Positions 5,269-49,972 of a DNA stretch of 64,000 bases are shown here, piece after piece. A program made the translations under genes and the position numbers. The notes beneath the pieces were generated by a model. It was not told the origin of the DNA. It did no database searches and saw nothing but the letters and a program-made list of their open reading frames with translations. Where the stretch lies: the NCBI GenBank assembly GCA_963843285.1, contig CAWJJO010000004.1:5521-69520 (forward strand). The letters are read 5' to 3'. The stretch's first letter is position 1. Each line of letters begins with the position of its first letter. Source of the DNA: an uncultured bacterium. Its GTDB lineage: Bacteria; Acidobacteriota; HRBIN11; JAKEFK01.

Positions 5269-5270
5269 AT

Positions 5271-12037: not shown

Positions 12038-13376
12038 ATGACAGATGCGGAGCGGCCGTCAGGTCCACCGGGTCATTTCCTTTTCGGCAATCTTCCGGAA
12101 TTCGGACGCGACATCCTTGGCTTCTTCACCAGATGCGCGCGCGAATACGGGGATATCGTGAAAATCAAACTGTTCCGGTACGATGCGTTTCTGATCAATC
12201 ATCCTGATTACATTGAGCAAGTTCTGGTTACAAATAGCCGCAGCTTTCAAAAGCACAGTTTTTTCTGGAGACATGTGCGTGCAATTTTTGGAGAAGGATT
12301 GCTTACAAGCGAAGGCAATTTCTGGCTCCGCCAACGCCGCATGTCGCAGCCCTTTTTCCACAAAGAACGGATTGCAGGGTACGGAAAATTGATGGTCGAT
12401 TTTGCCGAACGGATGCTCGCGGATTGGAAAGATGGCGAAACGCGCGACATCCACCAGGAGATGATGCATGTTGCATCGCGGATTGTTACGAAAGCATTGT
12501 TCAGCACCGATATCGACCGGGACATGCGCGAAGTGGATGAAGCTTTCAACATAGCGATTCAGGAAGTCGCCGTACGGTTCCGGCGGCCAATTCGAATCCC
12601 TGAATTCCTGCCTCTTCCAGGAAATCTCCGGTGCAAAAAAGCTGTGAAGCGGCTGGATGCGTTAATGTACCGGATCATTCGCGAGCGTCGTTCCGCAGCA
12701 GATGGGACCGATCTGCTATCCATGATGTTGCAGGCGCAAGACGAAGATGGAACTCGAATGACCGATACGCAGCTGCGCGATGAGGCCGTAACATTATTTC
12801 TCGCGGGTCATGAGACTACAGCGATTGCGCTTACCTGGACGTTTTACCTGTTATCGCAAAATCCCGAATCGTTAGCGAAACTGGTGTCGGAACTCCGAAC
12901 GGTTCTGAATGGACGTTCCCCGCAGGCCAGCGATATACCGAAATTGCGTTACACGGAAATGGTCATCATGGAATCGATGCGTCTTTATCCGCCTGCGTAC
13001 GCGTTTGGGCGCGAAACGATCCGCGATTGCCGGATCAATGGAATCGAGCTGCCGAAAGGAACCACGGTTTTCATGAGCCAGTGGGTCATGCATCGTGATG
13101 CGCGGTATTTCGATGAGCCGGATGAGTTTCGTCCCGACCGATGGGCGGATGGTCTGGCGAAAAGGCTCCCGCGATTTGCGTACTTTCCTTTCGGCGGCGG
13201 TCCCAGACTCTGTATCGGCAATTCTTTTGCAATGATGGAAGCGGTTCTGATACTCGCAACCGTTGCGACAAAAATTCCGCCTGGAGCTTGTCCCGAATCA
13301 TCCGGTAGAGCCCTTCCCCGCAATTACACTCAGGCCGCGTTTCGGTATGAAGATGACATTGCGAAAGAGGGTGTAA
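12038..13376 (+). CDS. cytochrome P450 (apparent +1 frameshift in A5 run at 13270-13274)
   Basis: FGGGPRLCIGNSFA heme-Cys loop and AGHETT I-helix. The ORF track runs to 13555 through the repeat. Frame 3 after the A-run gives the canonical P450 C-terminus KFRLELVPNHPVEPFPAITLRPRFGMKMTLRKRV*, ending at TAA 13374 inside GTGTAAG. Confidence 0.75.
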
Positions 13377-13412
13377 GAAGGGGGATGGGGAGATATGGGG
13401 GATGTGGGGATG
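13371..13412 (+). repeat. G-rich palindromic-repeat family, single arm; its TAA is the predicted P450 stop
   Basis: GTGTAAGAAGGGGGATGGGGAGATATGGGGGATGTGGGGATGG. Confidence 0.8.
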
Positions 13413-13490
13413 GTGTGTTCGAATTTGCTGAAAAGAGAAAATTATTGTCGCGCAGTAGGGCGTTGCTTATGGTGTCGTTTTTGACGGACT

Positions 13491-13775: not shown

Positions 13776-15041
13776 TCATGATCCGAAGGGATGATCAATC
13801 GATGGACTCTGCACAGTAAACATCCGCGGGCCGTCTTCTGTGATGTACATACAATCTTCCAGGCGAATTCCGAATTCTCCATAAATAACGATCGTTGGCT
13901 CATCGCTGAAACACATTCCGGGTGCAAGGCGTGTTTGGTTTCCGCGAACGAGATAAGCCCATTCGTGGCCATCCAATCCGATCCCATGACCGGTTCGATG
14001 TGGAAGTCCCGGGACTTTGTAATCGGGTCCAAATCCGGCATCCGTGATCACCTTGCGCGCAGCAGCGTCTATCGACTCGCAGGTCGCGCCGACTTTCGCA
14101 GCCGCAAACGCTGCATCCTGCGCTTTGCGCTCTAGATTCCAGATGTCTCGCTGCCGCGCAGAAGGTTTGCCGAACACAAACGTTCGTGTGACATCCGAAC
14201 CGTATTTTTCCACATCACAGCCCCCGTCCATCAAGACAACGTCTCCTTCCTTCAGTTTTTGCGGCTGAATACTACCATGCGGAAAGGCCGTGTACTTTCC
14301 AAAGCTTGTAAAGGCTTCCCCTTCAACGCCCAGCGCACCAAATGCAGCAGAAATATTTGCGGAAAATTCGTCCGTGGTGATCCCCTCTTTTAATGTGTCT
14401 ACGGAGGCCTTATACGCGGCAATCGTGATGTCATTTGCACGCTGCATCAAAGCCAGTTCTGCAGCGGATTTGATCATCCGGCATCCGGCAGTCACAGGAT
14501 CAGCGCTTACGAAGGTCAACTGCGGAGCCTCCTTTCGAATGCCGTCAAAAAGGAAAAAGCGTACTCGTTCCTCCATACCAATCGTACCGGTTAGAATCCC
14601 GCGATCCTGAAAGATCCCGGCAATCTTTTTGTACGGACTTTCATCCTCTTGCCAGGTGCGAATGTCGGAACCAAAACGGATCAGCTCGCGCGCGCGCTGT
14701 TCTTCGAATGCAGGACAAACCCATGCAATCTCTCCGCGCGCCGGAAGAACGGCAGCGAACATCCGCTCAGATCCATGCCATTGCACTCCCGTAAAGTAAA
14801 ACAAACTGGTACCCGCTTCGAGATAAATCGCATCGATTTTGTTTTCTATCATTCGCTTGCGAGCCTTTTCCATTCGTTCCAATCGCTCTTGATCTGTGAT
14901 CGGTTTGACTCCGCCGGTCATAGGCTTCAAGTTTGCGAATGCGCCACCCGGGGTATCGGCGCGTGAAAAGCGGGGACTGGCCATGGCACCGGCGGCGAAT
15001 GCGGACAGTTTTAGAAAATTTCGTCGATCCACACAGATCAT
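13776..15041 (-). CDS. M24-family Xaa-Pro aminopeptidase/dipeptidase with Tat signal
   Basis: RRNFLKLSAFAAGAMA twin-arginine signal. HGIGLDGHE and other pita-bread metal-ligand motifs. Confidence 0.8.
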   Translation of the reverse strand: MICVDRRNFLKLSAFAAGAMASPRFSRADTPGGAFANLKPMTGGVKPITDQERLERMEKARKRMIENKIDAIYLEAGTSLFYFTGVQWHGSERMFAAVLPARGEIAWVCPAFEEQRARELIRFGSDIRTWQEDESPYKKIAGIFQDRGILTGTIGMEERVRFFLFDGIRKEAPQLTFVSADPVTAGCRMIKSAAELALMQRANDITIAAYKASVDTLKEGITTDEFSANISAAFGALGVEGEAFTSFGKYTAFPHGSIQPQKLKEGDVVLMDGGCDVEKYGSDVTRTFVFGKPSARQRDIWNLERKAQDAAFAAAKVGATCESIDAAARKVITDAGFGPDYKVPGLPHRTGHGIGLDGHEWAYLVRGNQTRLAPGMCFSDEPTIVIYGEFGIRLEDCMYITEDGPRMFTVQSPSIDHPFGS

Positions 15042-18570: not shown

Positions 18571-18618
18571 TGTTTCACTTATAATCCCGTAACTTTGGAC
18601 ATTCAGGCAGTTTGTTGT

Positions 18619-21600
18619 TTAAGATCGGATCCAGAGTTTTTCGTAAACGACACTGGGAAGGGAGAAGCGCATTTCCAATCCTTCTACTTCCGCACGCGCG
18701 AACAAATAACGCTGCTCATGAAAAAGAGGAAGCGCCAACGCCTTGTTCCTGAGGATCTCTTCGATTTCGCGATAAATGGCCTGGCGGACTTTGCGGTCCT
18801 GTTCTGCGCGACCTCGTTCAATCAGCCGGTCCAATTCAGGCGAGCTGCAAAAAGCATCCAACATTCCGTCACCTGTCTCAAAGATCTCTGCAAAAGTAGA
18901 AGGATCCGGATAATCAGCATGCCACCGCACAAGAGCCAAATCCGCATTTCCTGTTTTGAGAAAGTCGGCAGACGCTTTATTCTCCAGTACTTTGATCCGA
19001 ATTCCTTTTTCGTTCAGCATGGCGATCAAATCTTGCAGCAGAGCCGAATACGTACTTTCGTAAATGGGATGGATCATGCAGGTCAGTTCCAGATCCCCTT
19101 TTCCTTTCACACTGGAGGGTAATCCTGTCCTGCGTGTAGGCTCATATCCAAGTAAGCCCGGCGGGGTCAAGCTGTAAGCCGCGATTCCCAAACGGCCTAC
19201 ACTCTGACGCACCAACCGGGTTACGTCCACCGATTCCAGAATTTGCCGTCGCAAAGCTGGATCGGTCATCGCTCCGGAATGAGAGTTCATCACCAGAAAA
19301 TAGGTGGAAAGAGTAGGCATTTCCGCGTAATGAGCGGCAAGAGTCGGATCACGGCGTAAGGTTGCAACATCTGATGGAAGCAAGTCAGTAGCCACTGAAA
19401 AGTCTCCGCTGCGGAACCCGCTCAAGATTTCTTGTGGCGGCACGCCAAAAGTGAATCTGAGCCCATCACTTTTGGGCAGTCCGGTACGCCAATAATCAGG
19501 ATTCGCTTCCAGTTCCAGCAGTTTTTCCGGCTCATACCGGATGAGGCGGAAAGGTCCCGTCCCGATACACCCATCTCGCCAGCTTCCCGAAAACAGAGTG
19601 CTCCCTTCCGGTATGACGGAGCAACAGGGATGGGTCAACATTGCCGGCAACAGCGAAAGAGGGCGGGTGAGGTCGATTACGAATTCCGTGGCGGAAATGA
19701 TCTTGAATCCAGGAAGGTCGTTGGATTCACCTTTGATCATCGAAGTGGCTCCACGAATTGCAGACAAATATCCGCGACGCGGAGATCCGCTTTTGCGCAG
19801 GAGTTGTTCAAAGGAGTAACGAACGTCGCGCGAAGTCAGGCGCCGTCCATCTTGAAAACGTACGTTTTCGCGCAACTTGAAGTGGAATCTTTTTCCTCCT
19901 TCCCCGGAAGAAAACTCAGATGCGAGCCACGGAATGATTCCCCCTTGCTTTTCGACGGTCAACGTTTCGAAAATCATGGGAGTCACTTCCCCCTCTACGA
20001 TCAGAAAATTCATCGAAGGGTCTATACTTTGTGGTCGCGTGGTTTGAGGGACTCGCACAAGCCCTCCTTCCCGTTTTTTGCCCGGAACCAAACCTTCTTC
20101 TTCGATTCTTCCGATTTCCGCGTACCGGACAAATGGCGCGCTGCTTTGAATCGCGAGTCCTCTGAGGTTGTGAGCCGCCACACGGTAATCGATTTCATAA
20201 AAGAGCGGCAAAAACGTTCCTTTCTCCATCAGCAGCTCTTCCATCTGTCGATACAACTTTTCTCTTTTCTCAGGGCGACTTTCCACGCGCGCCTGTTCCA
20301 TGAGCTCATCGATTTGATCGCTGGAGAAATATTTCCGAAAATTGCCGGCCTTGGAATAAAAAAGAGGATAAATGAAATTGTCCGGATCATCATAATCGGC
20401 GATCCAACGCGTGAGCAACACATCGATATTTTCATTGTTGTCCCAGGCCTCGCGATACGAGCTCATATCCGGCGTCACGATCGAAGTTTCAACACCCAGC
20501 TCTTCCCAGGTTTTCAACAACGCTCTGATCAAAGCGCCGTAGCGGTCCTGGAGAATCGGATGGACGGCAGCTCTTAACCGGATCGGTAAGGATAGACCGG
20601 TTGTTTGCAATCGTTCGCGAGCCTGATCGATGGAAATGCTGATATGTCTTCGGCCCGGATCGTGACCGAGCAGTCCGGGTGGCAGCAAACCCTCAGCAGG
20701 CTGCGCAAAGCGCCCCAGTGTGCGCCACACCAGATCATGCGTTTGAAGCACTCCGCATAATGCTTCGCGCAATGCAGCTACTTTTCCAAAGGGTCCGGAT
20801 GAGTTGAACACAAGAAAACAGGTGCTCTTTTTCGGAACTTCTACAAATCCAGCTTGAATCAACGGATCGCGAAGGATTTCATCCAGATTTTCCGGCAACA
20901 GATCGCGGACAACATCGAATTCACCTTTCTTGAAACCTTCCGCCATCTTCTTTGTGCTGATGGAAGTTCGAAACTCGACAGTATCCAGGAAAGGCGCGCG
21001 TCCTTTCCAGTAATGTTCGTTTTTCTGCAAAATGATTTTACCGGGTTCCACCGAATCGATCCGGAATGGACCTGTGCCCACCAGGTTTCCATGGGTGTCA
21101 TCGCAGGTGATCGCTGCCCGCGCATCCGTTAGCAGCGAGGGATAAATCAACAGCGGCTCCTCCAGTTGCACGGAGAACGAAGTGTCCGACTGCACCTGGA
21201 TTCCGGTGACCTCATTTTGGGAACCAGCGAGGAATTCCCGGACTCCCACGATGGAACCGAATGCTGCCGCCATATTTTCCCCGCTGACGCGGATCGCTTT
21301 TTCAAATGAGGATTTCACATCTTTCGCAGTGAGCGTGCGGCCATCGTGAAGAGATAATCCCTGTCTGAGAGTAAACACAAATAGTTTTCCATCTTCACGA
21401 GCTTCCCAGTTGTCGCACAAAAACGGGACCGGATGCCCGCGTTCATCTGTGCTCACCAGAGTTTCAAAGATCGTGGCATGAACTTCTGCTTCTTCCACAA
21501 GCGAAATGTTGGCAGGATGCAACGCGGAAATGGGAGCAGGAAGAGCCACAACAATCTTGCCCCCCTGCGCAATTTTTCCTTCTTTCTTCGGCTGCGGCGC

Positions 21601-24600
21601 GAGGACTTCCAATTCATGCAAATACTGCTTCGCCTTTTCGTACTCGCCCCGTAGATTTGCAACCGTGCTTCCGAGCGAAAGCAATCTGTGCAGACCGCCG
21701 GTTTCACCGCTGGACTTCGCAACCTGGATTCCTTTGTCCACCCATTTCCCGGTTTCCTCGAATTTCCTGCTCTCCCAGGAAGTTTCTGAGAGTTGAACGA
21801 GCGCATTCGCGAGATGCGCTTGATGTTTCTCCGTTTCAAACAGGGAAACCGCCTGTTCTAATTCCCGTAATGAATCCTCCAGATTTCCGGCCATCCGGTA
21901 TGCCTCTGCCAGAAGCATTCTGGCTTCCCCCTCTCTGGAACGATCCATCCCTTCTTCTTCATCGCCGAAGAAATCGAGAACGGTTTTTGTTGTGCGTATG
22001 GCATCTTCCGTGCTGAAAGCATGGAGAGATTTTCGCGCAAATTTTAAACCGTAGTCGATCACTTTTTCAGGAACGTCGGCATTCGAATAGTGATGAATCA
22101 ATTCCGGGTACACCCGCTCCAGCCGCCCCTGGTTCCGGCGCTCCAGCTCTTCAGCGTATTTGCGATGAAGGGACCGGCGTTTGCGGCGTGAAAGCTCCGC
22201 GTAGAGCACATCGCGAATCACGCCGCTGGAAAACATCAGACGGTCGCCGCGCGACTCCCGTTCTTCTTGCAACAAACCGTCACGGAGTAACTGATCGAGC
22301 GCATCTTCTACGTCCTTGCCTTCGGCAAGCAGCTCCAGATCCCTGAAATCAAAACTTTTCCCGATCACCGATGCGAGGGAAAGGACATCCTTCCGGTCCT
22401 GAGGCAGCCGCTTGATCCGTTTTTCGATCACTTGCTGGATTGTTTCCGGCAAAGCTCCTGAAGAAAAAGCGGCATCACTCGAAATGGTCCAGGCTCCCGT
22501 GTCATCCTTCGCGACCCCGCCCGAATCGATCAACGATCGAACAAGTTCCTGCGTAAAGTATGGATTTCCCTCCGTCGCTTCAAACAATCGTTCGGCGAAC
22601 CGGTCATCCAGAGTGGTTCCTGTCAGGATGGTTTCGAGAAACAGTCGATGTTCGGCAGTGGAAAAAGGTTGCAGATGCATCAGTAAAAATCGCCTGTCGC
22701 TGCGAAAGCTATCCAGAAGCTGGTGCAGCAGATGCCTCTTATCCACTTCGCCGCTGCGATACGTTCCTACCACCAGAGTCGGCGTTGTGCTGAGCCGGCG
22801 CACCAGATATTCCAACGCATCAATCGAAATGTCTACGTTATGCAGATCTTCAAAGAAAATGACCAGCGGCTTTGCGCCTCCGATCCGGATAAAAGAACGG
22901 GCGAGCAGATCAAAGATATAAGTGCGGTCTTCAATCTTTTTTGTTTCTGCTCCGGGCGTAATCTTTCGATCCGAAGTTAACTCGATCTCTGCGAGAACGG
23001 GAAACAGAGAGACGAGATCAGAAGCAAGGTCGGAGAAATCCACCGGACCGGAAGAAGAGGTTGCCTTTAAGTGAAAATATTCCTGGATGACTTCACAAAA
23101 CCCCTGATAGGGGAAGGCCCGGTCCTGTTCTGCGAAACGACCGTGAAGAACACGGATGTGGCGCGCGCGCGCGAGCCGTTCCAGCTCATCCAGCAATCTG
23201 CTCTTGCCGATTCCTGCTTCACCGCCGACCACCACAAACTGGCATTCACCGGCTGCTGCCAGGTTCAACCGGTTTTGTAAATCGGTGAATTCTTTTTCTC
23301 GATCCACAAAAGGAGATTGCACGGCCTTTTGAATATGACTGGACAACCTGCCGATCATGGACAGCTTTTGCGCGCGTTCGCTGTCGCGCAGCTTCGAACG
23401 AAGCTTCATCAAAGATTCCGTTAATTCCCGCGCGCGCTGCGGACGTTTGGTCCGGTCCTTTTCCAGACAGCTCATCACAATGCGTTCCAGCTCCTCCGGC
23501 ACATCGGCGCCAAGCAAACGAGGAGCCGACGGAATTTCGTGAGCGATGCGGTACAGGACCGACTGAATTTCTCCTGCGAAAGGCGCTTCTCCCACCAGAC
23601 ACTCATACAGCACCGTTCCCAGAGAATAAATATCGGAACGTCCATCCAGGTCTCCCTGCGATAATTGCTCAGGACTGAGATAGGCGACGGTGCCCACTAA
23701 CATCCCTGTTTTGGTGAGATGGCTTTGAGTCGAGGACATGGCAAGACCGAAGTCGGTCACACGCACACGCGCTCCACCCGTAGCCGTTTCTCCCACCGAT
23801 ACGAGAATATTTTCCGGCTTGATGTCGCGATGTACGACCCCTTTCGTGTGGCTGTATTCGAGAGCATCCGATACCTGAATACCGATGTCGATGACATCTC
23901 CTAAACTCAGAGAGCGGTCGCGCAGCAAAGCTCGAAGACTCGATCCCGGAACGTACGGCATGACAAAGAACAGAGCTCCGGCGTGTTCGCCGATATCGTA
24001 TACGTTCACGATTGCCGGATGATCCATCTTCGCAACCACGCGCGCCTCTCGCTTGAAGCGTTCCACCGCGTCGGTGGAAAGAGCATCCGGAGTGATCACT
24101 TTGACAGCCACTTCGCGATCCAGCATCGGATCCCGGGCGAGGTAAACCACACCCATTCCGCCACGGCCCAGCTCGCGAATAATCTGATACCGGTTGGCAA
24201 AGCGAAGCGCCCTCAGCGCATTGGCCAGCTCCATAGCGGAGGAGTAGCGCTGGTTCCTGTCCTTGACCATGGCGCGGCGAAGGATCGGATCCAGTCCCTG
24301 CGGCATCAGAGCGGAAACGGAGCTCGGAAGCGGAGGATCGGTTGTGGCAATTTCATGCAAGATCGAAAGAACACTGGGACCGCTGAAAGGAACTTTTCCG
24401 GTGGCTGCTTCATAGAGAACGGCTCCCAAGGAGAAAATATCGGTGCGGAAATCGAGCGGTTCGCCTCGCGTTTGCTCCGGGGACATGTACGCCACGGTTC
24501 CTACAATCATTCCTGTTTTCGTGAGTTTACTGACGGTTTGCTCACCGCTTACCTTTTCATCCTCAACCTGGACCACCTTCGCAAGGCCGAAATCGAGTAT

Positions 24601-25050
24601 TTTGGCCTGCCCGTTGGGTGTTACTAATATGTTCGAAGGTTTGATGTCCCGGTGGATCAGACCCGCTGAATGCGCCGCTGCAAGACCATCTGCAATCTGC
24701 GATCCAAGATCCAGAAGCTGCGACAATTCCAGGGGACCTCGCTGCAACAAGGATCTTAACGTTTCCCCTTCCACATATTCCATGACGATGAAATCCGCGC
24801 CATCAACCTCTTCGATGTTATAGATCGTAACGATGTTCGGATGATTCAGAGCGGATGCAGACCGCGCTTCCTGCAACAGACGCCGCTTCGCTGTGGCATC
24901 CTGTGAAGCGGAGGAGGGCAAGAACTTGACCGCCACCTGGCGTCCAAGCTTGAGGTCCTGGGCTTTAAAGACTTCACCCATTCCCCCCTGCCCGATTTTT
25001 TCAAGAATGCGGTAATGAAGTATTTTCTGTTCGGGACCGGATGAATTCAC
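18619..25050 (-). CDS. giant multidomain signalling protein: two tandem Ser/Thr kinase domains, AAA/STAND NTPase, TPR, two SBP_bac_5 (OppA/DppA-like) solute-binding domains
   Basis: 2143 aa. Kinase 1: [31 protein letters not shown]. Kinase 2: [27 protein letters not shown]. Walker [13 protein letters not shown]. Two C-terminal modules with the family-5 SBP pattern (GTGPFR...KNEHYW). No TM segment evident. Confidence 0.85.
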
Positions 25051-25115
25051 GATGACTCCGTGGAACTTCGGGCTAAATCAGCAAAAGTAAAAGTATACCA
25101 GAGTGGGTGTAACAA
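23451..25115. repeat. segmental duplication copy A (~1.67 kb, near-identical to 32406..34078)
   Basis: Identity starts at CCGGTCCTTTTCCAGACAGCTCATCACAATGCG and ends inside the G-rich repeat arm after GTGTAACAAGGGGGA. Confidence 0.85.
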
Positions 25116-25167
25116 GGGGGATGGGGGGGATGGAGGAGATAAGGGGATGGGGTTTTATTTATTGAAT

Positions 25168-26493
25168 CAGTGCTGTCCGGTTAAATGTCGAATAGTTGCA
25201 ATTGTTTACAGTTTAGATCCTGTTGAATCGTATAGTTTGGTTGTGAAAGTGCTTGGAAAATGGGCATTTTTTCGAAAAGGCTGAGACTCAAAATCTGTAG
25301 AATTGTGTAAAGGCTTTGATCCAGTTGGAGTTGTTTCTTTATCACCGACACCAGAACATAAACCGAGATGGAAATCCAAATTTGAGTCTTCACAGCGTTT
25401 GGTGAGGTTCCATAAAATGCTTTGATTCGCAAATGCTGTTTGATCCATTTGAAGAAAAGTTCGATCTGCCAACGGCATTTGTACAGCTGGCCGATGACCA
25501 CGGCAGGCAGATGGAAATTGTTGGTTAAGAATGTAAATCGCTTGTTTGTTTCGGTATCGTAGTATCGAATGCGGCGTAGTTTGTCGGGGTAATCTAGTTT
25601 GGTTTTGATGCCATTTAGCAAGATAGTTTGATCGCATCGAAGTCCTGTGGATCGCTCCACAGGATAGGAGTATAGACGATGGTAGTCGAAGTTGCTTTTG
25701 GCTCTCGTGATGAAGAAGGCCATGGTTTGATCGATCTTGTAGAGTCGAGCAAAATCGACGTAACCGCGATCCATGATGTAGATGGCAGCGGGCTCGAATG
25801 TCAGTTGGTCCAGGATGTTGATATCGTGCACTTTTCCTGTCGTGACAATAACCGTCGTCGGAAGATTGCCGCGCAAATCCAGCAGCGTGTGAAGTTTTAT
25901 CGCGCCTTTGTGCTTGCGAAACCTCGCCCACGGAAACAACTCCAGACAAAGATCGATTGTAGTGGAGTCCAAAGCGTAGACTGTCTGATCCAAATCCAAA
26001 GCGAAAGGCCCGTCTGCGTACAGTTGTCGAGCAATGCCAATGAGCACCTGCGCAAAATCGGCGTAAATCTGCCAAGATCGCTTCTCGTTGGCATCGGCCA
26101 GTGTGCTGCGGGAGATCTTGCCGCGAATGCCAGCATGATAAAGTTTGGATTCCATTACCCGCAGACACGTCTCGATATCCCGCAGACTCTCGCGATATGT
26201 AAGTTGCGCAAAGGCCATGCAAAGAAACTGATCCAAACAAGAGAAACTCCGCGTACGATGATTCCCTTGATAGCGTTCGACACATTGATTGAATTCCAAG
26301 CGGGAAGCGAGTCCATCAATTGAGAGAAAACCGTTCGTCCTTCGTTCATAGACCACCTCTTTCCGTAACAAAGCGCGGAAAGTATGGCAGAAAGGATCAA
26401 CTAATTTGAAATCGAAAACGACTATTTTGTACTCTAAGATATTCATTTAGTATAAGTTATGGGCAACTTCAAAATTTTAACCGGACAGCACTG
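25168..26493 (-). mobile_element. IS4-family insertion sequence, 1326 bp, intact
   Basis: 18-bp perfect terminal inverted repeats CAGTGCTGTCCGGTTAAA. 9-bp direct target duplication TTATTGAAT (25159-25167 and 26494-26502). Single DDE transposase ORF. Confidence 0.85.
25181..26446 (-). CDS. IS4-family DDE transposase
   Basis: 421 aa filling the IS between its IRs; sequence is IS4-like. Confidence 0.8.
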   Translation of the reverse strand: MNILEYKIVVFDFKLVDPFCHTFRALLRKEVVYERRTNGFLSIDGLASRLEFNQCVERYQGNHRTRSFSCLDQFLCMAFAQLTYRESLRDIETCLRVMESKLYHAGIRGKISRSTLADANEKRSWQIYADFAQVLIGIARQLYADGPFALDLDQTVYALDSTTIDLCLELFPWARFRKHKGAIKLHTLLDLRGNLPTTVIVTTGKVHDINILDQLTFEPAAIYIMDRGYVDFARLYKIDQTMAFFITRAKSNFDYHRLYSYPVERSTGLRCDQTILLNGIKTKLDYPDKLRRIRYYDTETNKRFTFLTNNFHLPAVVIGQLYKCRWQIELFFKWIKQHLRIKAFYGTSPNAVKTQIWISISVYVLVSVIKKQLQLDQSLYTILQILSLSLFEKMPIFQALSQPNYTIQQDLNCKQLQLFDI

Positions 26494-26608
26494 TTATTGA
26501 ATAATAAATTATCCCCACATCTCCATCATCCCCTGATCTCCTTTCTTACACTTCTTTCAATCGGGAACTGGAATTACACTGGCTCGCCGGGCACCGAAAC
26601 GGTATCGG

Positions 26609-27754
26609 CTAAAGCCAACCGCCACTAAATCCCGCCCGCCGCAGTCCGGTGACGACTGCCGGGCAACGGCGCATGATGTTCCAGAGCAGGCCGGTCCGGT
26701 AGTTCTCGATCATCAGCACGACCGGTCCTTGATCGATGCCGAAGTGATACGGCGTGACCCACCAACCGGTCGGGCTATCCGGCACGGCAAACGATTGATT
26801 GAACGACGGCTTGAACCCATATTTCCCCGTCATTCCCAGGTCCATTCGCGCAAAGTGCCGCACGGTCGGGATGACGATTTCAGGAGCAAACGGCAGCGAG
26901 GCGACGACGACCCACGGGGCGACAGTGCCGTCGTCTGGACCGAATGGGGCGCCGCGAGCGATATAGTCGAAGAACTCGCGTTCGACGCCGTTGACCACCC
27001 GCTTCGCCCAACCGGGTCCGTCGCATGCCGTGAATCCCCAACAGTGTTCGCCGTAGCCGACGAAATTCATGGGATTGCGGATCGCGTATTCCTGCTGCAC
27101 AAACGTCGCCTGCCGGCTGTTCTCGAAGTAGTCGCTGCCGTGCGTCCGCATGAATTCGTCGCGAATGCCGCGAAAGTCGATCCACATATGCGAGAGCTGA
27201 TGCGTGAAGAGCGGCCCCGAGTAAAGCAATTCACGATCGTAGATGTTCTTCCACTGGTAGGTCGCGCAATAGGCGCGATAACTCTCGGGCGGCAACGGAT
27301 GCGTTGGCGAGCCGAGTCCGAGGATGTAGAGCAGCAAGCCTTCGTCGTAACCTTGCCAGCGGTGTGGGATGAACCCGTTCTCCGGCCGCCAGCCATGCGT
27401 GAGCGTCGGTCCGCCATCACAGGCCCAATTCCAGTCGGCCCGACGGTAAAGCGCATCGGCCAAGCTTCTGATCTCGACCTCGTCGGGCGTGTCGCGGTCG
27501 AAATAGGTGGCGACCGTCAAGGCACCCGCGAACAGAAATGCCGAGTCGATGGTGGAAAGCTCGCACTGCCAGACGCGGCGACCCGTTTCGATGTCCAGGA
27601 AATGGTAGAAGAAGCCTTTGTAACCGGAGGCGTCCGGCTCGGGACCCTGCGGGCATTCGAGCAGGTATCGCAGTCGTTTCCGGGTGATCTTGGCGGCGAA
27701 ATCTCGGAAGAGGACGCCGCGCTCGACGACGACCGGAATCGTCGCCAGCGCCAT
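26609..27754 (-). CDS. hypothetical Trp/Tyr-rich protein in high-GC block, possibly glycoside-hydrolase-associated (DUF3131/glucoamylase-like?)
   Basis: 381-aa intact ORF immediately downstream of the GH94 pseudogene. Family call weak. Confidence 0.4.
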   Translation of the reverse strand: MALATIPVVVERGVLFRDFAAKITRKRLRYLLECPQGPEPDASGYKGFFYHFLDIETGRRVWQCELSTIDSAFLFAGALTVATYFDRDTPDEVEIRSLADALYRRADWNWACDGGPTLTHGWRPENGFIPHRWQGYDEGLLLYILGLGSPTHPLPPESYRAYCATYQWKNIYDRELLYSGPLFTHQLSHMWIDFRGIRDEFMRTHGSDYFENSRQATFVQQEYAIRNPMNFVGYGEHCWGFTACDGPGWAKRVVNGVEREFFDYIARGAPFGPDDGTVAPWVVVASLPFAPEIVIPTVRHFARMDLGMTGKYGFKPSFNQSFAVPDSPTGWWVTPYHFGIDQGPVVLMIENYRTGLLWNIMRRCPAVVTGLRRAGFSGGWL

Positions 27755-27930
27755 GCCGACGGCGGCGATGCTGACCGGAGCGTTCGGGTCGGTCTTGTCG
27801 CGGACCAGCCCATTGTCCGGATTGGTTTCGTGCAGATAGTACAGAACCGTGGAGAACTGCAGCAGACCCAGATCTTGTCGGTGAGCAGTCGATCAAGATC
27901 GTTGTCGGCACCGGGAGTGTCGGCCATGAG

Positions 27931-30900
27931 TCAGTTGCTCTCGGTCAGCCCAATTGCACGCGGACGTTGTGAGTCTTCCCGTCGTCGCTGAGCGGCACTG
28001 CGTCGTTCGGCAATCGTTGCCCGTCCAAGCTCGACCGATCGGACGCCGCGACCCGTGCCAGCCGAGTTGTCCACCAGAATCCGGTATGTCGCGGACCGAT
28101 GGCGATAGGTCAGTTCAAATCCCGGCCAGCTCGGCGGGATGCATGGCTCGAAACGAAGAGTGCCGCCCCGCAATTGGAAGCCCAGAATCGTTTCAATCGC
28201 GACGCGGTAGAGCCAACTCGCCGAGCCGGTGTACCACGTCCAGCCGCCGCGGCCCGTGTGCGGCGGGGCGCCATACACGTCGGCGCACACCACATACGGC
28301 TCAACTTTGTAATGCTGCACCTCCTCAGCCGTCGTGGCATGGTAGACCGGGTTGATGAGGTTCCAAAGTTCCATGGCGCGGTCGCCGCGACCCTGCAACG
28401 CCGTCGCCAGGGCAACCCAAGTGGCGGCGTGGGTGTATTGACCGCCGTTCTCGCGGATGCCCGGCACATATCCTTTGATGTAGCCGGGCTGAAGGGTGCC
28501 TTTGTCGAACGGCGGGTCGAACAGTTGGATCAGTTTGTCGCCGATACGCACCAGTCGTTTTTGAACCGCGTCCATTGCCGATTGAGCCCGCTGCCGGGTT
28601 TGCTACCCCGGAAATGACCGCCCACGCTTGTGGGATGGCGTCGATCTGGCACTCATCGTTTTGAGCTGATCCCAGGGGAGTGCCGTCGTCGAAATATGCC
28701 CGGCGGTACCACGCGCCGTCCCAGGCGTTCGCCTCCAGAGCAACCCGCAACTGCTCGGCTCGCTCCCGGCACCAATTGGCATCGTCGGCCTGGCTGCGCC
28801 GCTCAGCCAATTCTGCAAACGCGTTCAACACGCTGACGAAGAACCACCCGTTCCAAACGCTCTCGCCCTTTCCGTGGGCGCCCACCTTATTCATGCCGTC
28901 GTTCCAATCGCCAGTGCCCATGAGGGGCAATCCGTGGGGACCCAGTCGATAGCCGTGCTTCAGCGCGCGAACGCAGTGCTCGTAAACGGTGCCAGTCTGC
29001 TCACTCACTGCGGGCAAGTTGAAGTCTTCCTCCTGGTCTTCGCGAAGTACCGGCGACGTGATGAACGGCACGACTTCATCTAACAAGCTCCGTGTCGCCT
29101 GTTGTCACAACATAGTGGTGAACGACGAGCGGCAGGAAATAGAGGTCGTCGGTGATCCGCGTGCGAACGCCGATCCCGGACGGCGGGTGCCACCAGTGCT
29201 GGACATCGCCCTCCTCGAATTGCCGTGCCGCCGATCGCAAGATCTGCGCCCGCGCCTCTGCCGGAGCGCTGTAGACCAGGGCCATCACATCCTGCAGTTG
29301 GTCTCGAAAGCCGTACGCTCCGCCGGATTGGTAAAACGCGGAGCGAGCCCAAACGCGGCAAGCCAGGACCTGATAAACAAGCCAACGGTTGAGCATCAGG
29401 TCGATGCCCGGATCGGGCGTAGTCACGTGCAACGCGTTCAGGTAGCGGTCCCATTGCTGTTGCACCTGCGTCAGTGCCGCATCGGCTCGATCGGATTGTG
29501 TGTATTCGTCAATGAGTCGATGAACCTCCTCCAAACTGTCCGCCTGACCCAAGGCAAAAACCACTTCTCTCGTCTCACCAGGAGCCAGCGTCAGTTCCGT
29601 CGTCATTGCCGCGCAGGGATCGAGGGCATGGGCCGGCGCGGCCGGACAGCCCGACGCGCCTCAGAGCGGCGGGCATTGAAATCGAGCCGTGTTCCCCGAG
29701 AAATTCCGTACGATCGGCGGTGACCGACTGCGTCGGCGAACCACAGGCCGCGAAGGCGATCTTCTCGGCGAAGTTCGCCGGCCCAGGCATTCCGCGCCAA
29801 TATCGCGCTCGCTCTCCGGATCGCGCTCACAGACGACTTGCAGCGGAGCGTTTTCACGGACGGTTCCAAGAACCCATTCGGCGTAGTACGTCGCCGACAA
29901 GCGCCGGGGCCGATCGCCGTCATTTCGCACCGTCAGGCACACCAACTTAATCGGATCGTCGGTCGGGACGAAAACCAAAAGGTCCTGATTGAGATTGCGG
30001 CTGACATGCGTGTAGCGAGTGTAGCCCTGGCCGTGGCGGACGGTCACCGTTGCCGCTAGGTCCCAGCGGCAAGGGCGTGGGTGTCCAGAAGTCACCGGTT
30101 TCCTCGTCGCGCAAATAGATCACTTCGCTTGGCGGGTCCGAAGTCGGATCATTCGACCAGGGAGTGAGGCGGTTCATTTGACTATTGCCCGCCCAACTGT
30201 AGCCCAGACCAGCCTCTGTCACTAAACATCCGAACTGCGGATTGGCCAGCACATTCGTCCAGGGGGCCGGCGGCAACGCTGGTCCCGACTGTGACGTGCC
30301 GTCGATGACGATCACGTACTCGCGGCCATCACGGGTGAAACCTCCGAAGCCGTTCCAGAAACTCAATCCTTCAGGCGGTCGGGCGGGCTGCGCGACAGGC
30401 TTTGTCGCCGATCGCAGCCGGAGTGAGTTGCGGCGGCGGATCGGGCGGTGGGGCAGCGCGATGATCGATCTGCTCGGTCAGCGAGCCCGCGACCACCGCC
30501 GAGTACAGCCCGCGCGGCGGCCGCGAGCAGGACCGCATCATCGGCCGGCACCTTGTCCGCGGTCAAAAAGAACACACCGCCTGGCTTGCCGAGCATCTCG
30601 CCGGCAACTCCCGTCTGTAGTTCCTTTCGTAACCGATCGGCAGGTTCGCCGGCGCGCTCGTCCAGAATCACGAGATCCAATTTCAATCCCCGACGGCGTG
30701 TATAGGTGCGCCACTGAACAAGTTGGCGAACGACCGTCTCATCGTCGTCCTGAGCGACTCGGACCAGCACAATTGGCAGGTCACCGGAAATGGAGTGCGG
30801 CCACAGGCTCGCCTGCCCCAGCCGGTTGGCAGCCACGGCATCAAGGTCGCGAAGACCGGAGTTCGTGAAAATGACGGCCGCCGCCAATCGGTTGAACAGG

Positions 30901-31800
30901 GCGATTTCGTCCGGTGTGAGCTCCAAGCTCTCGTAGTTCGCTCTGGCAGCGGGCTTTGGCGCCTGCAAATGCCTGGTCGATCGCTTCGAATTCGCGGAAT
31001 CGTTCGGCTATTCCGATGGCGGCTTCACGCGTGTCAGCCGCTCCGGTCACAAATGCGATCCGAGTCGTCATTCCCGGCTTCGAGCTCGACGCGCCGGCGC
31101 AAGCTGAAGATCGGATCGAGCACCGGGCCGGTGGTCCGCGATAAGCGAGACCCCGAGTCCAAGGCGGCGGGATTGGCCGGCGTGCGACCGCGTCCGAGAA
31201 ATCTCATTCGATCCGTCTCGTATTCAATCTCTTCAGTGGCCGAAACGCTCGCTGCCGAAGTGTGAATCGCCCAGACTGGATGCTCGTTCGCGCCGCGGGG
31301 TCGGCGTCGGGCCAAAAGTGCGCCGCACCGGGGATCGAATTCCGTCTCCAGGAATAGCTTTGCGAAAGCAGGGTGGGCCTGATCGGCCCGACGGTCATTC
31401 AGACACACCTCCGCATAGCTCGTCAGCTCGAGTTCGCGGTGGCGAAGGCCGTGATTGACTAGCGTCACCGCACGTACCTCAGCATCTGCATCCGGCACGA
31501 CACAAACGGCACAGCGGGTCTCGATGTCGCCATCCCGTCGACGAAACTCCGCCCGGTCGGTATGAAACTCGAATTCAGATTCATCAGCGGTCTGGCGGCA
31601 GCGGTTGGCTGCCAATCGACCACAGACTGTCGTCGCTGAGGTCACGAATGTAATAGAACTGGCCCCAACAGTCGCGCGTGGCATCTTCGCGCCAGCGGGT
31701 TACATCCAGGTCGCGCCAGCTGCTGTAGCCTGCGCCGGCGCTCGTGATCATCACGCTGTACGAGCCGTTGGATAGCAGCGCTACCTGCAGGTTGCGATTT
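27931..31800 (-). pseudogene. GH94-family glycoside phosphorylase / cyclic beta-1,2-glucan synthase-like gene, 5'-truncated and broken by >=6 frameshifts
   Basis: GH94 hallmarks spread over different frames: SYSVMITSAGAGYSSWRDLDVTRWREDATRD (~31.75 kb), LELTSYAEV, DLVILDE, GAYGFRDQLQD, HWWHP, GDWNDGMN, RFEPCIPPSWPGF. Locally very high GC. Confidence 0.6.
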
Positions 31801-31978
31801 CATTTCTCGTCCTTTCGACATCAGAATCCTGTTGATACTACTTACTATTGACAAAAGTATGAACTGAGTGGCAAGCAAGCAAGCCCATAGGCGTCTTGCC
31901 GAATTACGAGGACCTGCGATGGCTTCAAATAAGGTGGGAAGATAGGGTTGCAACGCGGAGAACGCGGAGAGCACTGAG

Positions 31979-32022
31979 GTGTAAGAATGGAGATGGGGAG
32001 ATGAGGGTGGATGGGTACGCGC
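31979..32022 (+). repeat. G-rich palindromic-repeat family, single degenerate arm
   Basis: GTGTAAGAATGGAGATGGGGAGATGAGGGTGGATGGG, preceded by tandem AACGCGGAG AACGCGGAG. Confidence 0.7.
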
Positions 32023-32024
32023 TA

Positions 32025-32330
32025 TTATTCGTCCCAGGCTGCGACGCACCAGATCTGGATTGGCGTAGTGCCCCACTGCAGCATACGGTTCCCTGGACTT
32101 CCGACAATAGGGCATTCAGTATCGCCTTCTTGATCGATCACTACGATCCCTTTTGGCTTTCCTGTGGCCGGGTCAACCGGCATGTGGTGTGAGAACGTCG
32201 GGGAGTGACCGAAGCTTTGAAGACTGCCGGCGCCCGTAAACTGCCGGTTCTTCAAGACGTCGAAGTCCGCATTCAGTACCCAGAATTGCAGCAGAGATCC
32301 GGGCTGAAGTGTCGTAATCATCAAATTCAC
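32025..32330 (-). CDS. 101-aa hypothetical ORF translationally coupled to tandem-kinase ORF
   Basis: Its ATG overlaps the kinase TGA (ATGA). No recognisable motif. Confidence 0.3.
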
Positions 32331-34003
32331 GATCCGATCTCTCCAGCCGCTTTTCGCTGGACCCTGTCAAACAGGCTGGTGAAAGCGACAATGCGTTCTT
32401 CGCTCCGGTCCTTTTCCAGACAGCTCATCACAATGCGTTCCAGCTCCTCCGGCACATCGGCGCCAAGCAAACGAGGAGCCGACGGAATTTCGTGAGCGAT
32501 GCGGTACAGGACCGACTGAATTTCTCCTGCGAAAGGCGCTTCTCCCACCAGACACTCATACAGCACCGTTCCCAGAGAATAAATATCGGAACGTCCATCC
32601 AGGTCTCCCTGCGATAATTGCTCCGGACTGAGATAGGCGACTGTGCCCACTAACATCCCTGTTTTGGTGAGATGGCTTTGAGTCGAGGACATGGCAAGAC
32701 CGAAGTCGGTCACACGCACACGCGCTCCACCCGTAGCCGTTTCTCCCACCGATACGAGAATATTTTCCGGCTTGATGTCGCGATGTACGACCCCTTTCGT
32801 GTGGCTGTATTCCAGAGCATCCGATACCTGAATACCGATGTCGATGACATCTCCCAAACTCAGAGAGCGGTCGCGCAGCAAAGCTCGAAGACTCGATCCC
32901 GGAACGTACGGCATGACAAAGAACAGAGCTCCGGCGTGTTCGCCGATATCGTATACGTTCACGATTGCCGGATGATCCATCTTCGCAACCACGCGCGCCT
33001 CTCGCTTGAAGCGTTCCACCGCGTCGGTGGAAAGAGCGTCCGGAGTGATCACTTTGACAGCCACTTCGCGATCCAGCATCGGATCCCGAGCGAGGTAAAC
33101 CACACCCATTCCGCCACGGCCCAGCTCGCGAATAATCTGATACCGGTTGGCAAAGCGTAGCGCCCTCAGCGCATTGGCCAGCTCCATAGCGGAGGAGTAG
33201 CGCTGATTCCTGTCCTTGACCATGGCGCGGCGAAGGATCGGATCCAGCCCCTGCGGCATCAGAGCGGAAACGGAGCTCGGAAGCGGAGGATCGGCTGTGG
33301 CAATTTCATGCAAGATCGAAAGAACACTGGGACCGCTGAAAGGAACTTTTCCGGTGGCTGCTTCATATAGAACGGCTCCCAAGGAGAAAATATCGGTGCG
33401 GAAATCGAGTGGTTCGCCGCGCGTTTGCTCCGGCGACATGTACGCCACGGTTCCTACAATCATTCCTGTTTTCGTGAGCTTACTGACGGTTTGCTCACCG
33501 CTTACCTTTTCATCCTCAACCTGGACCACCTTCGCCAGGCCGAAATCGAGTATTTTGGCCTGCCCGTTGGGTGTTACTAATATGTTCGAAGGTTTGATGT
33601 CCCGGTGGATCAGACCCGCGGAATGCGCTGCCGCAAGACCATCGGCAATCTGCGATCCAAGATCCAGAAGCTGCGATAATTCCAGGGGACCTCGCTGTAG
33701 CAAGGATCTTAACGTTTCCCCTTCCACATATTCCATGACGATGAAATCCGCGCCATCAACCTCTTCGATGTTATAGATCGTAACGATGTTCGGATGATTT
33801 AAAGCGGATGCAGACCGCGCTTCCTGCAACAGACGCCGCTTCGCTGTGGCATCCTGGGAAGCGGAAGAGGGCAAGAACTTGACGGCCACCTGGCGTCCAA
33901 GCTTGAGGTCCTGGGCTTTAAAGACTTCACCCATTCCCCCCTGCCCGATTTTTTCAAGAATGCGGTAATGAAGTATTTTCTGTTCGGGACCGGATGAATT
34001 CAC
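32327..34003 (-). CDS. stand-alone tandem Ser/Thr kinase (two kinase domains); truncated duplicate of the N-terminus of 18619..25050
   Basis: 558 aa. The first ~533 aa are near-identical to the giant protein (e.g. IATADPPLP vs IATTDPPLP), then a unique 25-aa tail [25 protein letters not shown]. Confidence 0.8.
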
Positions 34004-34078
34004 GATAACTCCGTGGAACTTCGGGCTAAATCAGCAAAAGTAAAAGTATACCAGAGTGGGTGTAACAAGGGGGATAGG
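32406..34078. repeat. segmental duplication copy B (near-identical to 23451..25115)
   Basis: See copy A. Confidence 0.85.
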
Positions 34079-34106
34079 GAGATAATGGGGATGTGGGGAT
34101 AGCGGA
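34069..34106 (+). repeat. G-rich palindromic-repeat family, single arm
   Basis: GTGTAACAAGGGGGATAGGGAGATAATGGGGATGTGGGGATAGCGG, immediately before the ATG at 34107. Confidence 0.8.
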
Positions 34107-35828
34107 ATGAAAAAGAAGAAGGGCCGGCGCACGTCGGAGAGGGATCCGCTGATCAAGGTTCTATCCACATTTCGGCGCACGGATACGACATCTTTTGAGG
34201 ATGCATGGGTGGGGATGGAACCGACTTTTCAATCGGCGAAGTCGGTGAAGAAGTGGCGCAAGATGTCTGAAGAAGTTGGAGGCGAGGATGCCTACTTCCT
34301 TGATCCATACATGCTCAATACACAGAAAGAGGTCGCCAAATCGATTGTCAAACGGTATCGACGCAAAAAGGAACAAGGAGATCGGGCCTGTTTCTTTCTG
34401 GATGTGAAGCGCGAAAAGGATCAGGATCCGTGGAAGGTACAGCGTCAAAATCTTCACTTCGTTTGGGATGCGCAAGGAATCGAGGACTTCGAGGTGCGGT
34501 TTACGCTCGATCCGGAAACTTTCGAATACAGCATCAAGCCTGTTCCTCTTCTCTGGTTCTATGATGAGAGGTTCGTTCGTTTCCTGGAAGAGTTCCTGTG
34601 GAAGGTGCCCCTGCAGCATGGTCTATCGCCGTCCATCGCGCACGGAGGCGCTCAGTTCTCTCTATCGGCAAAAACGTACCTGACCGGAAGTCTTCTGGCA
34701 GACGACATCGCGGATAAATTGAATCATCCTGAATTGACGAACTGGATCTTCGATTGGCCGAATCCGGATGATCGCTCCTTCCGTGCTACGGAACAGCGTT
34801 TCGCGGCGTTCCGGAATCTGCTTTCCGCTTACTGGTCCGGAGGATTTCACCCAAAAGTGAAAGGCCTTCTCACTGCATCGAACGCTTATTTTGATGACGG
34901 ATTCAGTCCGGTTCAGACAGATAAAAAGGGCCTCATGGATTGGAACAGTGGTCCGGTCGGCAATGACCAACAGATTTTTCAGACGAACTTTTGTTTTGGC
35001 CGCGCAATCAGACTTTTCGCGCAGAATGTGCATCCCGGATACTGGCAGGCGGTGGATCCCAAAGAAGATGGCTATCGCCCCGATCAAATCATGCGCTACA
35101 GTGAGGCCAACCTCAACCGTTTGCAAATCGCGGGCGAGTGGCACGTCAAGAGCGGCGAACCATTGGATGTCGAGCGTGCGCCGAAATTGGACGCAACCCT
35201 CGATTCCTCCATGCTCACAACGGAGGCGAGTTACGAGAACCGCGGCCAGATGGGGCGCACCAGCGCAAAGGACTTTGTGGAAGCGCTGCTCCTCTCAATC
35301 CATCGCGCACGCTACCTCAAAGCACATCCTTGCGTGCGCGTAAAAGGCTCTCTGCTTCAGGATCAACTCCTGATCCATGCGGAAGCCACAGTGAAAAAAT
35401 ATGCGGGCAGCGCTGCGCTGGACAGATTGAAAGTGAACGCGCGGAAATCAAATCTTGAGTATTCCAAAGGGCGGCTCAAAATGGATTGGATTGAGCCGGA
35501 GACGCTGTTCTGGAGCGCATGGCATGCGCTTCCACGCAAAGAGAAAGCCGCAATTGCGTCGGAAGTCATCGGTCGTTTCGTTTCCTATGTCGAAGAGTCT
35601 GCATCGATGGATCCGCGTCCCGCGAAGGATGATCCGATGGAATGGCATCGGCACCGGATTCATCCCGTCCTATGGAAGGCTCTTGAAGATGGAAAAAGCA
35701 TTTTTAAGCCGGATGACTCTGTGCAGCGCGAGCTCAGAGCGTTTCGCGCAAATCGCAAGAAATATCTGGATCGCAGACCTGTCTTTTCGCAAATCCGCTT
35801 GAGACGGCCCTGGGGTTCGGAAGTGTAG
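34107..35828 (+). CDS. hypothetical protein, 573 aa, no recognisable domain
   Basis: Long ORF with good coding character. Its stop TAG lies inside the repeat start GTGTAGAAG. Confidence 0.6.
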   Translation: MKKKKGRRTSERDPLIKVLSTFRRTDTTSFEDAWVGMEPTFQSAKSVKKWRKMSEEVGGEDAYFLDPYMLNTQKEVAKSIVKRYRRKKEQGDRACFFLDVKREKDQDPWKVQRQNLHFVWDAQGIEDFEVRFTLDPETFEYSIKPVPLLWFYDERFVRFLEEFLWKVPLQHGLSPSIAHGGAQFSLSAKTYLTGSLLADDIADKLNHPELTNWIFDWPNPDDRSFRATEQRFAAFRNLLSAYWSGGFHPKVKGLLTASNAYFDDGFSPVQTDKKGLMDWNSGPVGNDQQIFQTNFCFGRAIRLFAQNVHPGYWQAVDPKEDGYRPDQIMRYSEANLNRLQIAGEWHVKSGEPLDVERAPKLDATLDSSMLTTEASYENRGQMGRTSAKDFVEALLLSIHRARYLKAHPCVRVKGSLLQDQLLIHAEATVKKYAGSAALDRLKVNARKSNLEYSKGRLKMDWIEPETLFWSAWHALPRKEKAAIASEVIGRFVSYVEESASMDPRPAKDDPMEWHRHRIHPVLWKALEDGKSIFKPDDSVQRELRAFRANRKKYLDRRPVFSQIRLRRPWGSEV

Positions 35829-35870
35829 AAGGGGGATGTGGGGATGAGGGGATATTGGGATAGGTAAGGG
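35823..35870 (+). repeat. G-rich palindromic-repeat family, single arm (GTGTAGAAG variant supplies the TAG stop)
   Basis: GTGTAGAAGGGGGATGTGGGGATGAGGGGATATTGGGATAGGTAAGGGG. Confidence 0.8.
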
Positions 35871-44688: not shown

Positions 44689-44694
44689 GCCCTG

Positions 44695-44742
44695 TGTAAG
44701 AAGGGGAATGTGGAGATAGGGGGGATGCGGGGATCTATTATT
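44695..44742 (+). repeat. G-rich palindromic-repeat family, single arm 6 nt after the serpin TGA
   Basis: GTGTAAGAAGGGGAATGTGGAGATAGGGGGGATGCGGGGATC. Confidence 0.85.
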
Positions 44743-49965: not shown

Positions 49966-49972
49966 TCCTGGG

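Follow-up and report, generated by a model that had tools for sequence, protein, structure and literature searches.

Why does an insertion sequence (IS) lie in the middle of a palindromic intergenic repeat? Its transposase may recognize the repeat, the core of the repeat may simply satisfy a short sequence preference of the element, or the insertion may have been random and have survived where it did no harm. We examined this question in the window, by which we mean the whole analysed stretch of 64,000 nucleotides. An earlier note had proposed that an IS4-family element with perfect ends and an intact reading frame had recently entered the spacer of a palindromic repeat, and that such spacers are targeted by the element. 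The explanation that we favor is that an IS4-family element probably entered a palindrome of ~110 bp that was already present, at its A+T-rich centre, as a result of the element's own short sequence preference, with no need for recognition of the repeat.

Structure and classification of the insertion sequence

The IS is 1326 bp in length (positions 25168 to 26493) and carries its transposase gene on the minus strand. It is bounded by 18-bp terminal inverted repeats that are 100% complementary: CAGTGCTGTCCGGTTAAA at positions 25168 to 25185 on the plus strand, at the 3' end of the transposase gene, and TTTAACCGGACAGCACTG at positions 26476 to 26493 on the minus strand, at its 5' end. A search of the window for this inverted repeat, allowing up to 3 mismatches, returned 2 matches, both of which are the ends of the IS (0.07 matches are expected). 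A perfect 9-bp direct repeat, TTATTGAAT, adjoins both IS ends; its first copy (25159-25167) constitutes the last 9 nt of the left half of the spacer, the second is located at positions 26494 to 26502, and the probability that all 9 nucleotides would match by chance at these fixed positions is ~4e-6. The perfect inverted repeats and the target-site duplication described in the earlier note are thus both present.

Assignment of the element to the IS4 family, which had also been claimed, is well supported. The window ORF matches the NCBIfam model NF033592 (transpos_IS4_1) with 275.9 bits (cut-off 115), and it contains the PF01609 DDE_Tnp_1 domain (E 1.4e-33). According to De Palmenaer et al. (PMC2266710), members of the family are characterized by D(60-110)D(100-150)E spacing and a Y(2)R(3)E(6)K motif. 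Numbered according to the intact sibling protein P0121, the catalytic triad is formed by D128, D194 and E297, whose spacers of 65 and 102 residues fall within the family range, and the YREK motif is present as Y290-KC-R293-WQI-E297-LFFKWI-K304. At the subgroup level, the element was assigned to IS4Sa based on the features listed in Table 1 of PMC2266710, not on phylogeny. IS4Sa elements are 1150-1750 bp long, have ends of the form CA------T and produce duplications of 8-10 bp, and the window IS fits this description with its length of 1326 bp, its ends CAGTGCTGT (C1, A2, T9) and its 9-bp duplication; the transposase of IS4Sa itself is a distant tblastn match (23% identity, E 4e-11). The nearest named relative is ISGme2 from Geobacter metallireducens (59% amino acid identity), followed by ISPosp4 from Polaromonas sp. 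JS666 (55%). Both matches cover 95-100% of the transposase, and both elements have the DUF4372 plus DDE_Tnp_1 architecture in common with the window IS. As identity to the named elements is below 60%, the window IS counts as distinct; it is an ordinary, so far unnamed IS4-family element, one more of its kind, and in itself it matters little.

The transposase gene contains a frameshift

The transposase gene (DUF4372 plus DDE_Tnp_1; 25181-26349, minus strand) has its canonical start at position 26349. Read from this position on the minus strand (MNEGRTVFSQLMDSLP...), the frame is open for 16 codons and is shifted at codon 17, after which the conserved transposase sequence resumes in a different frame. 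Alignment to a 91%-identical relative and to P0121 traces the shift to a 1-nt deletion that converts CCCC to CCC (plus-strand GGG, 26302-26304). The reading frame had previously been described as intact, which this deletion contradicts. The 421-aa ORF that spans positions 25181 to 26446 on the minus strand begins at a fortuitous upstream ATG, and its Pfam match to DUF4372 starts only at profile position 14 because the ORF is open only in the shifted frame. Transposase homologues are 388-389 aa in length, are encoded by one ORF and share the N-terminus MNEGRTVFSQLMDSLPR(Q/L)EFNQCV. A second 421-aa ORF in the window (13776-15041) was suspected to be another copy of the IS; it encodes an M24 peptidase that is unrelated to the transposase.

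Close siblings of the element were found among protein clusters. The 90% cluster of the closest homologue includes the exact 421-aa protein (P0123, encoded on a contig of 135,714 bp), as well as the intact 389-aa P0121, which is encoded on two contigs, the longest of 592,424 bp. P0121 is identical to the window transposase except for the frameshift, and this identity supports the earlier proposal that the insertion is recent. The source genome holds at least three copies of the IS if the contigs that encode P0121 and P0123 share its assembly. Judged from these sequences, the window copy would be either a very recent frameshift mutant or the product of a homopolymer miscall in the assembly; a genuine frameshift would probably leave this copy reliant on intact copies at other loci of the genome.

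The insertion interrupts a pre-existing palindrome

Outside the duplications lie two arms of a repeat family. The left arm is G-rich and on the plus strand (25106-25153; nhmmer E 6e-7); it consists of GTGTAACAA and then four GGGGAT-type units, is 94% complementary to the arm at positions 26527 to 26542, and is followed by the left half of an A+T-rich spacer (25154-25167). Its partner, as defined by hairpin reconstruction, is a C-rich arm at positions 26505 to 26552, which is a G-rich arm on the minus strand (nhmmer E 9.5e-9). The nhmmer profile was built from 17 arms, and each arm is composed of GTGTAAGAA and then four units of ~8 nt of the GGGGAT type. When the IS is removed together with one duplication copy, the site becomes a 110-nt hairpin-forming palindrome with a predicted energy of -64 kcal/mol using RNA parameters and -26.2 kcal/mol using DNA parameters (z = -5.2; 0 of 200 shuffled sequences are as stable). 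The duplicated 9-mer spans the apical loop of this hairpin. Both arms match the family profile and the reconstruction folds as one hairpin, which bears out the claim that the IS inserted into the spacer of a palindromic repeat that was already in place.

The further claim that the reconstructed spacer resembles those of intact copies holds for one of the four other paired copies. The uninterrupted copy at positions 49859 to 49966, which we used as a model of the empty site, comes closest to it in spacer and inner arm (AATAATAAATATCCCCACAT) and shares AATAATAAAT(T)ATCCCCACAT with the right spacer half and inner arm of the reconstructed site, whereas the spacers of the paired copies at 37958, 38961 and 57481 are unrelated to it.

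As a result of the insertion, 1.3 kb now lies between the two arms. The hairpin is located upstream of a gene encoding a 2143-aa kinase, 56 bp from its start codon; the IS now separates the hairpin arms, and the transposase gene points toward the kinase gene. Given this arrangement, the insertion may have altered expression of the kinase gene. A scan for promoters and terminators around the IS yielded matches at chance level only, and we therefore do not claim a junction promoter. A neighbouring gene encoding a 381-aa protein is part of a G+C-rich block that matches Rhizobium and Udaeobacter proteins at 85-93% identity and was probably acquired horizontally. A search for an orthologous empty site by way of the 381-aa gene obtained no useful relatives.

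Related elements reveal a short target preference

Scanning genomes with the inverted repeat of the IS recovered at least 53 full-length relatives with ~65-70% nucleotide identity, which, among the matches listed, mostly originate from Bryobacterales and other Acidobacteriota assemblies. Exact 9-bp duplications flank 38 of the 53 full-length relatives among the matches listed, and the duplication length is thus a trait of the clade. A 17-nt target matrix was built from the 35 empty sites of relatives that could be reconstructed, with the window left out. The contigs of P0002, P0005 and P0008 gave no empty sites, as their left and right flanks contain no common duplication; these assemblies probably collapsed several copies. 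Together, the 35 sites define a weak, symmetric consensus, WWT|AYNYNRNRT|AWW, and the targets are richer in A+T than the loci in which they are found (42% versus 58% GC, p 6e-7). In leave-one-out calculations, the matrix placed the true site in the median top 1.6% of its own locus. Applied to the window with the IS removed, the matrix ranked the real insertion site 2nd of 62,649 positions, and the real 17-mer has the best matrix score among the 10 most A+T-rich 17-mers of the window. A matrix learned from distant relatives thus predicts the insertion site almost perfectly, and because it is independent of the window, this rank demonstrates that the site is clearly non-random.

These data are consistent with the following mechanism. 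The IS would have moved by DDE cut-and-paste transposition with 9-bp staggered cuts, as expected from what is known of its family, and would have entered the A+T-rich centre of a palindromic intergenic repeat that already existed. The site would have been picked by the transposase's short preference for A+T-rich, weakly palindromic DNA, which roughly corresponds to the consensus given above and which the repeat spacer appears to match exceptionally well in a genome of ~50% G+C. Neither the G/C-rich arms nor a cruciform would have to be recognized, and we infer that the arms were not. The insertion would have persisted because its position is intergenic and dispensable, and the 1-nt frameshift in the transposase gene would have been acquired afterwards, unless it is an assembly miscall.

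Alternative explanations for the insertion site

The earlier note favored targeting of repeat spacers, and in its explicit form this would mean that the palindrome or the tip of its extruded hairpin is recognized, either by the transposase or by a repeat-bound host factor, which directs insertion into the spacer. We regard this as rather unlikely, yet several observations speak for it. The insertion is only 2.5 bp off the dyad, at the tip of the stable hairpin described above. In addition, of the four highest-scoring matrix positions in the window, three fall within or beside the repeat family: the real site, rank 1 (position 44740, directly after a single G arm) and rank 4 (position 38059, inside another paired repeat). 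As a result, sequence preference and repeat preference cannot be separated within the window, which weighs against a model based on sequence alone. Further support comes from close relatives of the IS. A metagenome scan with a 30-nt end-specific pattern returned 13 contigs, two of which carry close relatives (L124 and L131, with 91% and 87% nucleotide identity, respectively); two scans of viral contigs found nothing. The elements in L124 and L131 are both located in another A+T-rich palindromic repeat, two copies of which were entered independently, at positions that differ by 6 bp and with the elements in opposite orientations. The L124 site also has a poor matrix score, which counts against the model based on sequence alone. 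In L136 and L137, which hold two copies of a third relative, the palindromic motif GGATTTGAAATCTC is found beside the IS in both cases. There is also precedent within the IS4 family, as 10 of 10 copies of ISRm22 in Sinorhizobium meliloti reside in REPs (Tobes and Pareja, PMC1525189).

Other observations argue against recognition of the repeat. The targets of the 35 relatives, which have the same inverted repeats, are not hairpin-prone: their empty sites have a median structure z of +0.79 versus random windows, relative to which the window site is an outlier at z -3.7, and the flanks of the relatives' insertions are heterogeneous. Insertion into palindromic or structured targets was thus not found for these 35 empty sites, although the narrow lineage that contains L124 and L131 may differ. 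In L124, the element entered a stem arm and not the loop. At least 15 other repeat copies in the window contain neither the IS nor a solo inverted repeat, and the sample consists of a single inspected copy of this IS, the one in the window. In L139, a related contig, the repeat spacers are not top matrix sites, and only 2 of its top 12 positions are near arms, a result that also counts against the model based on sequence alone. Of the targeting claim, what stands is that the insertion site is non-random (rank 2 of 62,649); the part that invokes the repeat does not fare as well, since the matrix describes a short A+T-rich preference and the sites of the relatives are unstructured.

A less probable alternative, and one that we consider doubtful, combines coincidence with purifying selection: insertion would be random and survivors would be seen only in dispensable intergenic DNA, much of which is repeat. 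Arms and paired spacers indeed account for ~14% of the intergenic bases in the window (859 + 145 of 7334), and from 11.9 to 57.6 kb almost all intergenic regions contain a repeat copy. The expectation from position alone is also not negligible, as 18% of the A+T-rich intergenic 9-mers (no more than one G/C) are found in paired spacers. However, the paired spacers alone make up 2% of intergenic bases, and a random insertion would attain the second rank under the independent matrix with a probability of ~3e-5. Finally, the notion that the arms are part of the mobile unit, as the outer inverted repeats of a larger element that carries the IS as cargo, draws on the symmetric placement of the inverted arms around the IS and on a gene that is flanked in L139 by a G arm on one side and a C arm on the other, but it is very improbable, as paired repeats have no flanking duplications by inspection, and insertion of the IS into the repeat is secure because the 9-bp duplication is directly next to the 18-bp inverted repeats of the IS and not to the arms, relatives of the IS occupy ~50 other loci without such arms, and IS-free arms are present at 15 or more other sites.

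The repeat family is strand-polarized

The repeat family that harbors the IS has a distinctive arrangement. Each of the 13 arms that lack a partner is on the plus strand (p 2.4e-4), and C arms are found only as partners of G arms. Along the window, G arms follow one another in runs, and a single C arm closes each run. Single arms form no internal hairpin (0 to -1.2 kcal/mol). The family is present in the related contig L139 (10.6 kb); it was absent from the 883 kb of other loci and from the viral contigs in which it was sought, and no Rfam family matched anywhere in the window. Synteny between the window and L139 breaks at arm ends, and L139 contains a gene and a second paired repeat between arms that are adjacent in the window. 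One end of a 1.7-kb duplication, whose copies are 98% identical, is located inside an arm. One orthologous gene has arms on neither side in another relative; in the window and in L139, the last codon and the stop codon of this gene come from an arm. The proteins encoded in the window are mostly singletons at 90% identity, and their best matches among named proteins indicate Acidobacteriota.

Several known repeat types were considered and rejected as identities for the family. It is not a REP or REPIN, as its single arms do not self-fold; among 32 scanned ORFs of the window, neither a Y1 transposase/RAYT gene nor any other transposase gene besides that of the IS was found. Interpretation as a MITE, with the arms acting as inverted repeats, was discarded because no direct repeats surround the pairs 25106/26552, 37958/38076, 49859/49966 and 57481/57616. 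Resemblance to integron attC sites (RYYYAAC ... GTTRRRY) is limited, since the ends GTGTAAGAA and TTCTTACAC have 2 mismatches to each core. An attC array would be co-oriented, as the arms are, but most copies of the repeat are single arms and no integrase was seen in the window.

The strand bias, the runs closed by a C arm, the breaks in synteny, the duplication that ends in an arm, the extra gene in L139 and the armless ortholog suggest another interpretation, which we put forward as speculative and, on balance, unlikely to be correct. The A+T-rich segment inside the G-rich arm may be a hot spot for the entry or rearrangement of foreign DNA, such that the arms, being neither REP, MITE nor attC, would mark strand-polarized junctions between variable gene blocks in an uncultured lineage that is probably acidobacterial, with the IS as one instance of a general property of this undescribed family. 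The strand-polarized repeat family is a more unusual feature than the IS insertion, and it merits separate analysis.

Comparison with known systems

IS elements, one of the IS4 family among them, have been known since 2006 to insert into palindromic intergenic repeats, and the novelty of the present case is low. Tobes and Pareja described such insertions for elements of five families (PMC1525189), and conserved target arms have been reported for ISRm22 and certain IS4-subgroup elements (De Palmenaer et al., PMC2266710). Given the precedent of ISRm22, even genuine targeting of the repeat would be a case of a known phenomenon. The locus carries a caution for studies of this kind, as apparent repeat targeting can arise when a short sequence preference meets the A+T-rich core of a repeat.

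ISRm22, which belongs to the IS4Sa subgroup, is similar to the window IS in that it is an IS4-family DDE element found inside intergenic palindromic repeats. It differs in being represented by 10 copies as compared to one in the window, and its REP is G+C-rich with G/C pairs at the duplication ends, whereas the window IS entered an A+T-rich spacer between the two arms of a 110-bp palindrome. ISRm22 is not among the tblastn matches of the window transposase, and the Sinorhizobium matches correspond to ISRm16 (35% identity). Palindromic intergenic repeats are also entered by IS1397 and ISKpn1 of the IS3 family and by IS621, ISPpu9/10 and ISPa11 of the IS110 family. According to passages in PMC1525189, the REP specificity of IS1397/ISKpn1 and IS621 has experimental support, and work cited there places IS1397 insertions in the palindromic units of BIMEs. 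These elements have other transposases, chemistry and duplication lengths, and their specificity was shown on many copies or by experiment, whereas a single copy of the window IS was inspected.

The target repeat itself resembles REPIN/BIME and ERIC/MITE sequences in being short, high-copy and intergenic, with some inverted pairs that form a long hairpin, and is distinguished from them by single arms that do not form a hairpin, by the lack of flanking duplications and by unpaired arms that are confined to one strand. With regard to target choice, the window IS has features in common with IS10/Tn10 and IS50/Tn5, which likewise generate 9-bp duplications (Table 1, PMC2266710), and with IS231A. 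Palindromic target sites are described for Tn5 in a passage of PMC1525189, and a target consensus and DNA bending are attributed to IS231A in reference 21 of PMC2266710. These elements belong to other subgroups and have another consensus, and that of the window IS was derived in silico from the sites of its 35 relatives; all of them share with it a weakly palindromic target consensus with A+T-rich or bendable flanks.

Distribution and strand polarity of the repeat arms

A copy of the repeat is present in nearly all intergenic regions across 46 kb of the window (11966-57616). Within this interval, G-rich arms are located on the plus strand at positions 11966, 13370, 15830, 16656, 18524, 25106, 31978, 34059, 35827, 37958, 38961, 43336, 44694, 45824, 49859 and 57481, and C-rich arms (the same unit read on the minus strand) at positions 26552, 38076, 39005, 49966 and 57616. 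The arms are strand-polarised: each of the 13 that lack a partner carries its G-rich sequence on the plus strand (binomial p = 2.4e-4), and this polarity is independent of the orientation of the flanking genes. No C-rich arm is seen here without a G-arm partner, and the order of arms along the window reads (GGGGGGC)(GGGGC)(GC)(GGGGC)(GC).

Synteny breaks and gene ends at the repeat arms

The window was compared with a related 10.6-kb metagenome contig that carries the same repeat family (L139). The two are 89-96% identical at the nucleotide level, in patches, and gene blocks that are adjacent in L139 lie tens of kilobases apart in the window. Because the homology between them stops where the repeat arms end (matched arms at window 35822-35864, 44694-44739 and 49918-49966 versus L139 10019-10065, 6369-6411 and 1821-1868), we interpret the arms as junctions of shuffled gene blocks. 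Besides the pair split by the 1326-bp IS4-family insertion sequence (the IS; window 25168-26493), a second split pair is present at L139 1821-2438. The same locus in the window (49859-49966) is a plain G arm-spacer-C arm palindrome, whereas the L139 version contains, besides its G arm, a PDDEXK_3 gene, one more complete paired repeat and an additional, partial C arm. This difference reflects either the entry of DNA into the spacer or its deletion by arm-arm recombination.

Two duplications within the window lie at or near arms. The larger (23451-25126 and 32404-34079; 1676 bp, 98.2% identity) contains one third of the 2143-aa kinase gene near the IS insertion, from the 5' side, together with the leader of this gene and the initial 20 nt of the G arm; the duplication terminates within that arm. 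The smaller is a 240-bp copy of the 3' end of the kinase gene (11697-11936 and 18617-18856; 96%) that sits about 30 nt from the arm at 11966.

The last codon and the stop codon of the gene at 34107..35828 come from the arm's GTGTAG or GTGTAA, in both the window and L139; repeat arms are absent from both flanks of an 88%-identical ortholog in another metagenome relative, L140 (window 34059-34104 and 35822-35852 compared with L140 3887-3930 and 5651-5760). The annotated C-terminus of a cytochrome P450 ORF (12038-13555) is probably an artefact of the repeat, as the ORF reads through the arm at 13370-13414 and runs about 60 codons past the end of its Pfam P450 match.

The segment at 26609-32115, with the C arm at 26505-26552 and the G arm at 31978 as its boundaries, has a G+C content of 62%, as compared to about 50% for the window. 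It carries glucoamylase-family and GH94 fragments that share 85-93% identity with proteins of Rhizobium and Udaeobacter, arranged as about eight successive minus-strand ORFs, and its first gene lacks a 5' end. This block has the appearance of horizontally acquired DNA that is decaying. A co-directional cluster at 601-9604, which is free of repeat arms, encodes an SNF2-type helicase, an AIPR protein, an N6/N4 DNA methylase and a ResIII helicase, and resembles a restriction or defence locus.

Relatives of the IS in other contigs

Metagenome contigs L124 (= L001; 91% nucleotide identity) and L131 (87%), from sibling JGI samples of groundwater or sediment type, carry the two relatives most similar to the IS. 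Their flanks (L124 1-123 and 1451-1669; L131 1-99) show that each lies in a separate copy of an A+T-rich repeat (TTCTTTACTTATGTTTATTTGATATTT), at points that differ by 6 bp, and that the two insertions are oppositely oriented. In L124 this repeat forms one arm of a long palindrome. In a third contig, L138, a relative of the IS is directly adjoined by a second, different DDE_Tnp_1 gene, also of 421 aa (1412-2677), and IS elements appear to cluster in this contig.
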